In this document: one piece after another, positions 5,367 to 9,894 of the stretch
Layout: every line of letters begins with the position of its first letter
Numbering within the stretch: position 1 is the first letter of the stretch
DNA from: a virus
Length of the DNA: 39,624 bases
Reading direction: 5' to 3' (one strand)
UHGV virus genome: UHGV-0068444
Notes under the pieces: model-generated
Database searches by the model: none
Told to the model about the DNA's origin: nothing
What the model saw: only the letters and a program-made list of their open reading frames with translations
Made by a program: the position numbers and the translations under genes

Positions 5367-6420
5367 TTTACCCTCGTTAAGGCGGCTGCCACCGCCGTGT
5401 TTTCTCCATACACAACAGAGAAGGGCACCTGCAATTGTTGGCGACTGCAATCGCTATCCTCTTGCCCGGGTGGATTGGGTTATGAGCCCGTCACACGGTG
5501 ATACCCTTTTCTGTTGCGTAAAAAGGGCGGTACCGAGGTAGAACATTATCTTCGTCCCCCTTGCATAAGGTTGAAGACCCTGGTACCGCCAAGACTACAC
5601 ACAGCAATACTGGAACTACGGTTATCACGGTCCTAAGCGTGATTTGGTTGTGGTGGCCGGTACTACGATATTCCGGCATGGGTTGATTATCAGTGACGCA
5701 CCCTTTCGGGACACTACCTCACGGTTTAGCGCATCAGCCTGCGCATTCACCACAACGAAGAGAGCACTGCCGGTGTTCGAATCGAACGAACCTTTTCCCT
5801 GCCCAACCCTCCCAACTGAATGGGACTGTCTGGAATCGAACCAGCACTTATGCCTTGCTCGTCAATGCTCTCGTCGTTGTGCCCTGAAAAAGGCTGGCGG
5901 TGACCGGACAAGTGGGAAAACACCGGGCCGCCAGAACAGGGAAGTACTTGTTATTGCTTTGGCCTGCTTTTAACCACATCAGGCGCGGTGGTAAGCCATT
6001 TGCGAATCATCCGGTTATTCATATGCCACCGGCGGCTACTTCGTGGGCGTCCTGCCTGTTCGCTGTTGATGAGTTGAATATACTTGTGAGTAATTTTTGT
6101 GTAAATACCTTTTGGTATATTTTTATTTACTTTTATAGCAACTAATTGCTTTTAATTGGATTTTAATTAAGCAGGTGATGGGTGTTATGCTCAAAAAAAC
6201 ACCAGGTGGCTTGGTATAGAACGTGATGAACTGGAAGAAGACCGTGCGGCATTCATCGCTGGTGAAATTGGCGGTGCAGTTTTCGAGTTGATAATCAACG
6301 GTGTGGTGATAAGTCGAGATGCGATTGTACATAGCTTGGAGACTAAGCGTCGCGCGGTTGGAAATGTGATTCACAAAGGAGTGTTGCGGGATGCTGCTAT
6401 GGTGAGAAAATAATATTTAA

Positions 6421-6452
6421 CCCGGCGCTTGCGCCGGGTTAAATGTTATTTT
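6421..6452. terminator. GC-rich hairpin terminator downstream of the repressor gene, possibly bidirectional
   Basis: cccggcg-cttg-cgccggg (7-bp GC stem) flanked by A-rich sequence on one side and T-rich on the other. Confidence 0.6.
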
Positions 6453-6492
6453 CTAGAAGATGTTAAGTCTGTTTCAAATTCTAACACCAAAA

Positions 6493-7203
6493 TTACAATT
6501 TGTTGTAAGCTATTGATTCGTGTAGTAATGCTTTACCCATAATGTACAATTGATCCTGGTTTTCTTCTGTTATGTACCAGTCTTTGTACACCGGGTTATC
6601 GGATAAAACTGCAAGTTGCAAGCCCTGCATCTGCAAGCGCTTCACATGGAAGTGCTGTCCGAATACAAACGCATAAACACCATCAACCTTGAAGTTTCTT
6701 ACCGAAACATCAAAAAACAACCTGTCTCCAGACTGTATAGTTGGACACATGCTGTCGCCATCGACAGTCATCACTTTTACGTCTTCCTGAGAACGATTTC
6801 CGAAAAGTGAACGAGCGTGCTCGGTGGTGAATTCAATGGCGTGTAGAACCTCAACAAATTCAGAGAGCATAAAACATCCAGGACCAGCACTCACAGTAAG
6901 GTCGAGAACTTCTACACGATAATTGTCGGCTTTGTGAGTGGGTACATCAACATCCATTTTTGAAGTTGGACTAAGACCATCCATCCATCCCCGGCTGATT
7001 TTCAAAGCATCCTCGATCTGCCGAGCAGCCTGCTCCCCAATATTCCGCTTATTAGGTTTACCAGCAGGGTAAAGCATCCGAGAAACAACAGTCGGATCAA
7101 GTCCTGCCTTTTCAGCAAACTCTCTTTGGGTCTTAAAGCGAGTTACTAACTCCTGAAGTTTGAGGCGTCGTAACTCGAAGATCTTAGGCGTTTCCGTTTT
7201 CAT
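6493..7203 (-). CDS. CI-type prophage repressor (N-terminal HTH, C-terminal S24 LexA-like autopeptidase)
   Basis: 236 aa; HTH-like N-terminus; C-terminal GDSMCPTI (Ser) and HVKRL (Lys) motifs of S24 peptidases; divergent from the cro-like gene. Confidence 0.85.
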   Translation of the reverse strand: MKTETPKIFELRRLKLQELVTRFKTQREFAEKAGLDPTVVSRMLYPAGKPNKRNIGEQAARQIEDALKISRGWMDGLSPTSKMDVDVPTHKADNYRVEVLDLTVSAGPGCFMLSEFVEVLHAIEFTTEHARSLFGNRSQEDVKVMTVDGDSMCPTIQSGDRLFFDVSVRNFKVDGVYAFVFGQHFHVKRLQMQGLQLAVLSDNPVYKDWYITEENQDQLYIMGKALLHESIAYNKL

Positions 7204-7302: not shown

Positions 7303-7545
7303 ATGGAAACGTTAAGAAATTACCTAAACGCTTTGTCGCTCGAAAAACAGAGAGAGTTTGCATCACGATGCGAAACCTCTCTTGAGTACTTGCGTAAAGC
7401 CATAAGCAAAAAACAAAAGTTGGGAGCTGCTCTATCTGTTTCTATCGAAACGCATTCGGGCGGCTCAGTTAGCAGGAAAAACCTCCACCCAGATGATTGG
7501 GAAAAGATTTGGCCTGAACTTGATCATAAAAAAACAGCAGCATGA
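7303..7545 (+). CDS. Cro/YdaS-like small DNA-binding regulator
   Basis: 80 aa; METLRNYLNALSLEKQREFASR...; AGGAGG RBS; divergent from CI across the operator region. Confidence 0.65.
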   Translation: METLRNYLNALSLEKQREFASRCETSLEYLRKAISKKQKLGAALSVSIETHSGGSVSRKNLHPDDWEKIWPELDHKKTAA

Positions 7546-7574
7546 AAGTAACCACAGAAGAGAGGAGTTAACCG

Positions 7575-7819
7575 TGGGTAACAGCAGCGAGACAAAAGAT
7601 ACAAACAGCGTGACCGCTAAAAGCGATGAAGGACAAATAACCATTTCCGAAGGAAAGATGCGGGTTTACATGTCATTCCAGCCAATTGTCCTTCCCCTTA
7701 TTGGCGAGCTGATAAACGAGATGATCCTTAGAGGGAGATCCGCGGAGGAAATACAGGCGGCAGTTGAAAGCGCCGCCCGTGGTTATTCAACGTTCTATCT
7801 TTCGTTTGTTCATGGCTAG
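7575..7819 (+). CDS. Hypothetical early protein
   Basis: GTG start 6 nt after GAGGAG RBS; 81 aa; longer ORF 7493-7819 overlaps cro. Confidence 0.4.
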
Positions 7820-8052
7820 CACTGCGTACGTTGATATTGCTCTTCGGTTTCTTTTGATCTGGCGGACTCTATTTCCTTCAGTTTGTTTCGGTAAAGCTCA
7901 CTGAAGACCAGTTCTGCATTGGTGATCAACTGAAAAACCTCTTCTGGCGACTTCTGGAATGTTTTGAAGTGACCAGACAAGACAAGATTCATGGCCAGAT
8001 CGTGAGCGGCTTCTTCGGGAGACTTGCCGTAAGGCAGTGAATTTACAGACAT
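7816..8052 (-). CDS. Small hypothetical protein encoded antisense within the rightward early region
   Basis: 78 aa from MSVNSLPYGKSPEEAAH; AAGGAGG RBS 7 nt upstream; converges on the 7575-7819 gene with 4-nt overlap. Confidence 0.5.
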   Translation of the reverse strand: MSVNSLPYGKSPEEAAHDLAMNLVLSGHFKTFQKSPEEVFQLITNAELVFSELYRNKLKEIESARSKETEEQYQRTQC

Positions 8053-8137
8053 GTCGAACCTCCTTCGGTTCTGTTGGTGTGAGAGCTTGCAGGCTATCAC
8101 CGTCAGGAAGTTCGGCGCCAATAATGGAGTTGCAGTA

Positions 8138-8686
8138 ATGAACGAACCGCAATGGAAAGTCGAACGTCAGCCAGCCTGGCTGGTGGTAGCGATTAAAAAA
8201 ACGATTACCGATCTGCCAGGTGGCTACGCCGAAGCGGCGGAATGGTTGGGGGTGACAGAGAACGCATTGTTTAACCGCCTTCGCGTCGACGGGGATCAGA
8301 TCTTCCCTATGGGATGGGCGATGGTGTTACAGAAAGCCGCCGGTGTCAGCTACATAGCTGATGCGTTTTCTCGTCAAACAGATAACGGGATACACGTTCC
8401 GGGTGCGGTGCCAGATGACGAAAACGAAGAAATTGGCTTAAAGCTGGCCGAGCTGGTGGGGCGTCTAGGAGAACTGGTCAACGCTTACCGTTGGTATATC
8501 GACGATGGGGTTGTTGATAAGGGTGAGTGGCAGAGCCTTAACGACATTGCATATCAGTTCAGGGTAACTCTGATGACCTTTCTGAATTTGATTGCCCGTG
8601 TTTACTGCCTTCCAGAAAAGAGTGACGCCCGCGAGTGTGCAGCTCCGGGCGCCTTGGCGAACAACTCTTCGAGTATGGAGAAATAA
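8138..8686 (+). CDS. Phage regulatory protein, CII-like (CP76 family, by recollection)
   Basis: Start MNEPQWKVERQ after GGAG RBS; HTH-like LGVTENALFNRLRVDGDQIFPMGW and C-terminal CLP motif resemble the Enterobacteria CP76 CII regulator. Confidence 0.45.
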   Translation: MNEPQWKVERQPAWLVVAIKKTITDLPGGYAEAAEWLGVTENALFNRLRVDGDQIFPMGWAMVLQKAAGVSYIADAFSRQTDNGIHVPGAVPDDENEEIGLKLAELVGRLGELVNAYRWYIDDGVVDKGEWQSLNDIAYQFRVTLMTFLNLIARVYCLPEKSDARECAAPGALANNSSSMEK

Positions 8687-9027: not shown

Positions 9028-9894
9028 ATGAGCCAGATATTTGAAATCGTTCAATCGCTGTCGGGGCAAAGGAATAGCATCACCATTCCGGTCCCGTACC
9101 TCGATTATTTCTCCGGCGATCAGCAGGCGCATGCTTTGGGCGCTGTGCTAAACCAGCTCGTGTTCTGGTCTGGTAAATCAGATCTGAATGATGGCTGGTT
9201 TTATAAAGAGCACAGCGAGCTTGCGGCAGAGATTCGCGGCGTGAGTGAAGATCAGGTGCAGCGCCTGGTAAACAAGATTTGTACCCGCTGGCTACCAGGG
9301 GTTGTTGAAAAGGCGCAGCGACAGGTAAACGGCACGAAAAAGACGCATTACCGTATCAATGGCGAAGCGCTAATCAATGTTTTATTCCCGGCAACGCTGG
9401 ATTCCGCAGAATCGCGGAACGGGAAACGCGAAGTCGCGGAACCTATTCTCTATACAGATCATTACTCAGATCACCACAAACAGATCATTAACCCCTCTTG
9501 TCCGGTTGCGCCGCAACCAGACCCTGAGGTGTTGATCACTGATAACGCCATCCTGGTTTTAACTCATTTGAACCAGGTAAGCGGCTCCCGGTACCAGAAA
9601 TCTAAAACCTCTCTGGAAAACATACGTGCCCGTCTGCGTGAAGGTTATACCGTCAGCGACTTAACGCTGGTGATTGACCTCAAGCATGAACACTGGAACG
9701 GCAATGACGCGCAGTATCAGTACATGCGGCCTGAAACTCTGTTTGGGCCGAAAAAATTTGAGGGTTATCTGCAAAGCGGGCTCCGCTGGGATAAGAAAGG
9801 CCGTCCCCCTCGTGAAAGCTGGGGCGAGAAGAAACATGACCCGATGAAGTTCGGCCCGGTAGATACCAAAATTCCAGAGGGATTCAGAGGATGA
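9028..9894 (+). CDS. Phage replication initiation protein (conserved phage C-terminal replication domain)
   Basis: 288 aa; C-terminal ILVLTHLNQVSGSRYQKSKTSLENIRARLREGYTVSDL...HWNG resembles the Phg_2220_C-type domain of phage replication proteins. Confidence 0.6.
   Translation: MSQIFEIVQSLSGQRNSITIPVPYLDYFSGDQQAHALGAVLNQLVFWSGKSDLNDGWFYKEHSELAAEIRGVSEDQVQRLVNKICTRWLPGVVEKAQRQVNGTKKTHYRINGEALINVLFPATLDSAESRNGKREVAEPILYTDHYSDHHKQIINPSCPVAPQPDPEVLITDNAILVLTHLNQVSGSRYQKSKTSLENIRARLREGYTVSDLTLVIDLKHEHWNGNDAQYQYMRPETLFGPKKFEGYLQSGLRWDKKGRPPRESWGEKKHDPMKFGPVDTKIPEGFRG

Follow-up and report, generated by a model that had tools for sequence, protein, structure and literature searches.

A small antisense gene in a prophage early operon, part of a rare and apparently mobile two-gene module

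The rexAB, bor and lom genes of phage lambda are moron, or accessory, loci. In lambda and in coliphage 186, a CII-dependent promoter is located at the start of cII, and in 186, according to work attributed to Callen, Shearwin and Egan (2004), a weak promoter is reportedly suppressed by a strong convergent one (pR/pL). Convergent genes with overlapping 3' ends are typical of type I toxin-antitoxin (TA) loci, such as par/fst and bsrG/SR4. Genes that a prophage encodes antisense to its lytic genes, each under a promoter of its own, are typically accessory loci that lysogens express; STMMW_20121 of ST64B is an example of such an antisense accessory locus, and an OOP-like RNA has been reported in BTP1 (PMC7067206). 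Here, we describe gene A, located in the virus genome UHGV-0068444, of which the full stretch of 39,624 nucleotides, a nearly complete lambdoid prophage, was analysed and is called the window. Gene A (positions 7816–8052, minus strand) consists of 78 codons, with its ATG at 8050–8052 and its TAG at 7816–7818. It converges with gene B (7574–7819, plus strand; 81 amino acids), which starts with the GTG at 7574, ends with the TAG at 7817–7819 and is read with the cro operon; the two stop codons share four nucleotides (7816–7819). A preliminary description of this DNA had reported a 78-amino acid minus-strand open reading frame (ORF) with a strong ribosome-binding site, lying antisense inside the rightward early operon and overlapping the upstream plus-strand gene by 4 nt. 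All of this is borne out: A is a real gene, its coordinates are correct and the gene order is cI-like, cro, B, A, ymfL. Two features go beyond that description: A and B belong to a single inserted two-gene module, and the ribosome-binding site of A forms an arm of a conserved helix.

Small accessory genes placed antisense in the early region of a prophage are of a known kind; the libraries searched contain no description of the protein family of A, of its partnership with B or of the helix over its ribosome-binding site. Like moron loci, A is located in an insertion absent from close relatives and opposes the lytic operon, and expression in the lysogen would be expected. Moron loci have their own promoter and terminator; for A there is a candidate promoter, and some of its relatives have their own terminator. 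Unlike moron loci, A arrives as one half of a convergent pair of which the other half is read with the lytic operon, it has no canonical terminator in the window, its G+C content is undistinctive and its ribosome-binding site lies in a covarying helix. Like lambda OOP, A runs leftward in a rightward early operon, overlaps the 3' end of an early gene and starts just upstream of the next one. However, OOP is a non-coding RNA of 77 nt, whereas the product of A is a conserved protein, and the gene that A overlaps, B, has no CII-type match, the CII-like gene ymfL being located on the other side, in divergent orientation. As at pR/pL of 186, a strong lytic promoter may run head-on into a weak leftward one and so yield a lysogen-specific gene; the promoters of 186 are 62 bp apart and drive switch genes, whereas those considered here would be about 800 bp apart, with cargo as the leftward gene.

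The Shine-Dalgarno sequence of A, AAGGAGG (8059–8065, minus strand), is separated from the ATG by the spacer TTCGAC, which is 6 nt long, not 7 nt as first described. The combination AAGGAGG-N6-ATG occurs once in the window, against an expectation of 0.06, while bare AAGGAGG is not enriched (4 observed, 3.8 expected). Comparison of the A frame with homologues, for which DNA of four lineages was available, gives proportions of non-synonymous differences (pN) of 0.10–0.16, of synonymous differences (pS) of 0.50–0.75, and a ratio of non-synonymous to synonymous substitution (dN/dS) of 0.05–0.12; synonymous sites are saturated in the comparison with the 71–77%-identical homologues. The other five frames contain one to eight stops each, and in four of them dN/dS is about 1 or more. 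The antisense frame that shares the third positions of A has a ratio of 0.15–0.20 and contains five or six stops, and on the plus strand there is no competing ORF of any length in 7820–8137. From the low dN/dS and the closure of the other frames it is clear that A is a genuine protein gene under purifying selection. Lack of conservation in related prophages had been named beforehand as a finding that would speak against the gene; A is conserved in related prophages. A 101-amino acid extension from the TTG at 8121 is not conserved, its frame being shut 10–11 codons upstream of the ATG in two of the fetched loci (L001 and L006; loci are numbered with the prefix L), and all relatives of A begin with M-S/T-x-x-x-L-P. 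Existing public pipelines already call A in E. coli and Salmonella enterica, as "hypothetical protein". That A is a chance ORF which happens to have a good Shine-Dalgarno match is refuted: the window has many ORFs of this size on either strand and AAGGAGG by itself is unremarkable, but selection is seen over four lineages, length and amino-terminus are constant in 25 protein clusters of the family, and the opposite strand has no competing ORF.

The A product has a mass of 9.0 kDa and is acidic (isoelectric point 5.3), hydrophilic and soluble. The AlphaFold2 model (mean predicted local distance difference test score, pLDDT, of 80) is a two-helix hairpin, made up of a helix of residues 12–26, a loop and a second helix of residues 36–76. 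The amino-terminal half is best conserved, with the pattern LPxGK(S/T)PxEAAH(D/E)L..L(V).SG(H/Y)F. In the family alignment, the conserved region covers the amino-terminal 50 residues or so, while the carboxy-terminal 25 or so make up tails of about six classes unrelated to one another, such as ..EEQYQRTQC, ..NSINQDK, ..KNFNEFLKGS, ..QEIWSALVL, ..PWWEFFSLHYC and ..AAKDLKIGF, which implies recombination breakpoints inside a very small gene. A search of 5.8 billion proteins with A returned no more than five clusters, among them 78-amino acid homologues of 77% and 71% identity and a 65-amino acid form of 75% identity. A HMMER scan of 1.84 billion representatives added seven distant relatives and no more, and a profile search brought the family to a total of 25 clusters; with about 25 among 5.8 billion, it is extremely rare. 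All named members are from Enterobacteriaceae (Salmonella, E. coli, Enterobacter and Trabulsiella). Homology searching thus gave relatives, and a known family or fold was not reached: A has no match in Pfam, PHROG, NCBIfam or PADLOC, its profile finds no match among PDB sequences (best E = 0.87), and its model gives nothing below E = 1 with Foldseek against the PDB (best 6.0) or BFVD (best 1.5). A likeness to AriR/YmgB-Hha, suggested by the motif ..NLMLSG.., was rejected, as no such protein appears in the PDB profile search or the Foldseek results. The family is therefore undescribed in the libraries searched and belongs to no Pfam, PHROG, Rfam, catalogued TA or defence family.

Profile hidden Markov models (HMMs) of A and B were run over the six-frame ORFs of all fetched loci. 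A and B are found as a convergent pair in eight diverged lineages, with an overlap of 4–35 nt or a gap of 15–20 nt: the window type (L010–13 and L018–20), L001–4, L005, L006–9, L147–8, L149–51, L154–5 and L152–3. Within these paired lineages, identity falls to 44–48% for A and to about 32% for B. The pair is located directly after cro, after ydaS-ydaT, or ahead of either CP76-type CII genes or replication modules of several kinds. In L152–3 it is placed inside a tail-gene cluster (L152:2501–2921 and L153:465–885), between a PhiTE-type tube gene and an assembly chaperone gene; the order is tail terminator, E217_gp31-family sheath-like, PhiTE-type tube, B-like, A-like (opposed) and assembly chaperone. 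In all paired cases B runs along the surrounding operon and A against it, and A-like genes oppose their neighbours in every context, including those where they stand alone. Because the pair recurs in eight lineages, one of them with the pair in a tail cluster, it is, as far as its distribution can tell, a mobile two-gene module that is not tied to immunity regions. The A profile identified seven loci in IMG/VR (L018–L024). Species-representative genomes and JGI metagenome contigs yielded no new A or B loci, and scanning viral contigs with a DNA pattern for the A translation start returned only loci already known.

The module came into this operon by insertion. Similarity to cassette-less E. 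coli prophages ends at 7557 and resumes at 8141, which defines an inserted cassette of about 580 bp (7558–8137) containing B, A and the A leader. In the cassette-less L025 and L026, ymfL follows cro after 10–28 nt and begins GTG GGT AAC/T GAA/CAA CC. In the window it is B that begins GTG GGT AAC (Met-Gly-Asn), behind the original ymfL ribosome-binding site (7560–7582), while ymfL has a new start, ATG AAC GAA CCG, behind a new GGAG (8120–8146). Since cro runs straight into ymfL in L025 and L026 and B starts like their ymfL, the cassette was inserted after about the third codon of ymfL, with B taking over its translation start. The L149 locus contains the same new ymfL junction as the window, and B, A and the CP76-type gene have consequently kept their synteny over some time. 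Even at low stringency, none of 5,426 complete E. coli genomes contains the cassette; it is likewise missing from 50,697 phage records, where a distant family member gave nothing either, and from the PLSDB plasmids.

The start of A is close to the plus-strand gene at 8138, with 85 nt between the two ATGs, in agreement with the distance of at most about 90 nt in the preliminary description. The divergent promoter pair proposed there on this basis is not supported: in relatives without the cassette, ymfL is an internal gene of the cro operon and hence needs no promoter of its own, and the promoter scan found no plus-strand promoter-like site in 8053–8137. On the minus strand, about 75 nt upstream of A are conserved between contexts, with the start codon of the neighbouring gene directly beyond, at 78–107 nt from the ATG of A. 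The block GGAG(G/A)T(T/C)C(G/-)ACATG is retained even in relatives of 44–52% protein identity. Further upstream, a candidate promoter, P_A, consists of a putative -35 element TTGGCG (8116–8121, minus strand) and, 19 nt away, a putative extended -10 element TG-a-TAGCCT (8091–8099, minus strand); transcription is predicted to start near 8084, giving a 5' untranslated region of about 32 nt. When the 200 nt upstream of A were scanned, this site had the top score in four of seven loci and the second in a fifth. Where it is found, the end of its -10 element is always 37–38 nt before the ATG, and all ten leaders compared have A at -11 and T at -7. Most leaders, including those of the distant L022 and L152, contain TTGG(T/C)(G/T) or a sequence close to it. 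The TG extension goes with a 19-nt spacer; the leaders of L005 and L152 have a 17-nt spacer and no TG. From the conserved position of these elements, we infer a weak sigma-70-like promoter for A.

The leader also contains a conserved helix over the ribosome-binding site. Its 3' arm, GGAGGTTCGAC (8053–8063, minus strand), comprises Shine-Dalgarno and spacer nucleotides and pairs over 11 bp with the 5' arm, or anti-Shine-Dalgarno, CCGAACTTCCT (8105–8115, minus strand), located about 45 nt upstream. Across ten diverged leaders, 87% of cells are paired (88% for the 11-bp helix). There are three compensatory pairs in the whole structure, two of them within the 11-bp helix; the two-sided changes are A-U to G-C (L001 and L152), C-G to U-A (L023), and a third at one inner pair. 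Neither the covariation nor the pairing observed was reached by any of 500 shuffles, and no Rfam family matches the helix. The hairpin is predicted to have a stability of -28 to -44 kcal/mol in operon-sense RNA and of -24 to -30 kcal/mol in A-sense RNA. Pairing of the Shine-Dalgarno sequence with an upstream segment, backed by covariation, is the mark of leaders that sequester it, and the sequence of the A leader fits this description. As in such leader hairpins and in RNA thermometers, an upstream segment pairs with the Shine-Dalgarno sequence and spacer, with compensatory substitutions; unlike in those, the helix could equally form on operon-sense RNA, and the candidate P_A leaves the upstream arm outside the A messenger. 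The helix would therefore either throttle a longer A messenger, act on read-through transcripts, or act on operon-sense RNA.

Downstream of A, a GC-rich hairpin with a U-poor tail is located in the B coding sequence (7753–7780), 38–65 nt beyond the A stop codon. The 57-nt segment containing it has a stability of about -19 to -25 kcal/mol, and the hairpin coincides with B residues QAAVxxAA. It may be a weak terminator for the A transcript, an element of the B messenger, or a by-product of alanine codons. With a 4-nt overlap of the coding regions and no hairpin nearer than the one inside B, the A transcript would overlap the 3' end of B. Elsewhere in the family, the lone A-like gene of L023 has a strong intrinsic terminator of its own (a stem-loop plus a T-run), and in L021 a GC hairpin follows the stop codon of the A-like gene, which the filter used did not score as a terminator.

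Gene B is as solitary as A in database terms. Its model (pLDDT 73) contains a beta-hairpin followed by a two-helix hairpin; it has no match in Pfam, PHROG, NCBIfam or PADLOC, and Foldseek gives no fold match (best E-value 1.4). A ribbon-helix-helix fold was considered for B and rejected, there being neither a Pfam match nor a protein of that fold in the Foldseek list. No membrane segments or known toxin folds were found in A or B. Both proteins contain a helix-G-(K/R/H)-S..EE-helix motif, and MAFFT aligns them over L..L.L.G...S.EE....A..[FY]. As two small proteins encoded side by side, each built around a two-helix hairpin and with this motif in common, A and B recall, by analogy only, SinI and SinR of Bacillus, where a small antagonist shares a helical hairpin with its partner; unlike SinI and SinR, A and B are convergent, not in tandem. 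Alignment of the two profiles with hhalign gives P = 2.9e-4 at a probability of 40%, or P = 1.1e-3 at 20% with a broader A profile, and neither HMM detects ORFs of the other family. Residues 45–66 of B (window positions about 7706–7771), L..L.L(R/A/E)GKS.EEIQAAV, match a de novo designed helical repeat protein (PDB entry 9k80) with E = 7e-11, which cautions against reading homology into short, idealised helix-loop-helix motifs. With the weak profile alignment, the mutual blindness of the HMMs and this match to a designed protein, descent of A and B from a common ancestor was set aside as unproven; a generic helix-cap motif may be all that they share.

Taken together, these observations lead us to favour, tentatively, a reading of A as a moron-type accessory gene, the antisense member of the mobile B/A module and a product of the lysogenic phase. 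In the model that we infer for the start site, the timing of expression, the transcriptional interference and the interaction of A with B, B would be read with whichever operon hosts the module, here the cro (pR-type) early operon, and A, opposing that operon, would be transcribed from its own weak P_A in the 85-nt spacer, with a start near 8084. When pR is repressed, in the lysogen, P_A would fire and the strong Shine-Dalgarno sequence would allow efficient translation; when pR is active, head-on transcription would silence the weak P_A, and no dedicated regulator would be needed. The helix would block translation of A from transcripts begun upstream of P_A, or form on the operon-sense RNA. 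Being a small cytoplasmic helical hairpin, the A protein would most likely act by binding a partner. The likeliest partner would be B or the target of B, with A and B marking or controlling opposite phage states; the recurrent linkage makes B a candidate, and the lone occurrences and uncorrelated divergence keep this at the level of hypothesis. Expression of A in the lysogen is plausible from its orientation, the conserved weak promoter-like element and precedent.

Several observations weigh against this reading. The match scores of P_A, 5–8, are close to the median of the best scores in shuffled sequences (6.7), and a standard promoter scan gives no minus-strand site upstream of A. The anti-Shine-Dalgarno arm is located inside the P_A spacer, which means that the helix and P_A cannot serve the same transcript if this starts near 8084. 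Nor does the RNA indicate its own strand: A-sense RNA has 4 wobbles and 10 mismatches and B-sense RNA 6 wobbles and 8 mismatches, so that counts of G.U versus A.C, tried as a means of assigning the strand, are uninformative. There is no canonical terminator for A in the window, and the hairpin at 7753–7780 is kept in all B genes, with or without A, even in homologues of 32% identity. A occurs without B in three lineages, namely L021 (among terminase and lysis genes), L022 (in a cro operon, behind a Rha-like gene) and L023/24, three A-alone loci being among those from IMG/VR, and B occurs without A in three lineages as well, L014–17, several Salmonella prophages in which the adjoining slot contains other cargo. 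The divergence of the two proteins is uncorrelated (in L149, B is about 90% identical and A 48%; in L001, B is 43% and A 77% identical), which argues against a tightly co-evolving protein pair. Finally, there is no sharp contrast in G+C content between the cassette (0.44–0.48) and its left (0.39–0.47) and right (0.51–0.55) surroundings.

Other readings assign the module a different purpose or A a different moment of expression. Carried further, the partnership of A and B would make of them a mobile module of two proteins, not described before, by which the state of the phage is reported or controlled. One of the two helical-hairpin proteins, encoded tail-to-tail with overlapping stops, would be read with the lytic operon into which the module comes, the other from its own promoter while that operon is silent, with A antagonising B, or the B-like proteins of incoming phages, as a device for stabilising lysogeny or for superinfection immunity, and with the helix over the A ribosome-binding site and the antisense overlap providing reciprocal control; we regard this as unlikely. 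An improbable alternative is that A is a gene of the establishment phase, expressed from a leftward promoter in the 5' end of ymfL that would be activated by the CII-like YmfL, comparable to lambda pRE and 186 pE. Its transcript would carry the anti-Shine-Dalgarno, with translation of A restrained by the helix, and would run antisense through B and cro and in sense into cI. This would account for the covariation of the helix, which can act in the A messenger only if transcription starts at or beyond about 8116, and for the leftward alignment on one strand of A, anti-B, anti-cro and cI; YmfL is, moreover, a member of PHROG 101, "CII-like transcriptional activator", with a weak Pfam match to Phage_CP76, the family of 186 CII, and the position would be that of the CII-dependent promoters at the start of cII in lambda and 186. 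However, the sequence past the anti-Shine-Dalgarno is that of the adjacent gene and lacks conservation from one context to the next, and the module is also located in a tail operon and beside unrelated genes, without an adjacent gene for a CII-type activator. There is no convincing promoter in that region, where scores in the window are 2 or less, and a TTGC-N6-TTCA motif noticed there by eye in the window is absent from L025 and probably due to chance. A lambda-like CII site, TTGC-N6-TTGC, was also considered in the 5' end of ymfL and discarded, as it is confined to the window and missing from L025, and YmfL is of the 186-CII type.

It is similarly doubtful that the module is a TA-like, abortive-infection or anti-defence system, in which one protein would be harmful or active, the other would neutralise it and the convergent arrangement would give antisense control. 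A and B do travel together over very different contexts, in related prophages this stretch is a hotspot for TA-type cargo (TumE/HVO_A0114, PaaA2-ParE, MazEF-like and YoeB/YefM modules), and the geometry of A and B is the one described above for type I TA loci. Type II TA systems, by contrast, are co-directional operons of known families, whereas A and B are convergent and match no family in PADLOC, Pfam or NCBIfam; B without A and A without B would be unexpected for an obligatory toxin-antidote pair, the two do not co-vary in divergence, and neither protein has a membrane segment or a known toxin fold. Least probable among these readings, and in our view quite unlikely, is an active product consisting of an OOP-like antisense RNA against the 3' end of the B messenger, and possibly against the cro messenger, with the ORF secondary or the gene dual in function. 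The A transcript must enter B, given the 4-nt overlap and the position of the hairpin 38–65 nt inside B, and the arrangement resembles that of lambda OOP, which is directed against the 3' end of cII; an OOP-like RNA is reported in BTP1, too (PMC7067206). But the protein is under strong purifying selection with synonymous sites saturated, and a purely RNA role is unlikely because it would conserve nucleotides, not amino acids. The protein is also retained in the A-like genes without B (L021–L023), and the overlap region encodes the carboxy-terminal tail, the most variable part of A. A belongs to the small prophage genes facing lytic operons, a main source of functions specific to lysogens, among them exclusion, defence, virulence and the tuning of the switch. 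Most small antisense prophage genes have no assigned function, and A is a clean case, being a certain gene, rare and apparently mobile, with a candidate promoter head-on to pR, a covarying helix over its ribosome-binding site and, in B, an obvious candidate partner. Should A and B interact, the module would be a compact, portable tie of protein activity to the lytic or lysogenic state; should they not, A would be one more orphan accessory gene.

The genes surrounding the cassette form a rightward early region in the order cI-like (minus), cro-like (plus), B (plus), A (minus), ymfL (plus), O-like and Dam. The LexA/S24-type cI-like repressor gene is located at 6493–7203 (minus strand) and the cro/YdaS-like gene at 7303–7545 (plus strand). 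On the other side of A, ymfL (8138–8686, plus strand) encodes the YmfL/CII-like (CP76-type) regulator, with E = 7.5e-43 for PHROG 101; RefSeq annotates its relatives as "YmfL family". It is followed by an O-like replication gene (9028–9894) and the Dam methylase gene. The ymfL frame is open upstream as far as an ATG at 8051, in a palindromic CATG common with the A start, which generates a spurious 211-amino acid ORF; comparison with relatives indicates that the true start is at 8138.

In other prophages, the early-operon stretch beside B looks like a cargo hotspot. Unannotated ORFs are present in the slot next to B, antisense in L014:4500–4976 (minus strand, 158 amino acids) and L001:6745–7212 (plus strand of the locus, 155 amino acids), and in sense in L016:4298–4678 and L017:4298–4711 (126 and 137 amino acids); none of these four cargo ORFs has a PADLOC match. 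A TumE/HVO_A0114 (TA-like) pair lies antisense between CII-like and replication genes in L015:6000–6633, L016:6005–6638, L017:6444–7077 and L149:1322–1955, and PaaA2-ParE, MazEF-like and YoeB/YefM modules are located around the same immunity region in L006–9 and L154. In the whole 39.6-kb prophage, no tRNA or tmRNA genes were found and no Rfam family reached its gathering score, with only noise in the region of A. Between the early-left genes and cI, a stretch of about 0.9 kb (roughly 5550–6490) has no convincing long ORF and a G+C content of 0.35–0.37 at 6000–6300 and 6400–6600; it could contain a small accessory gene or RNA.

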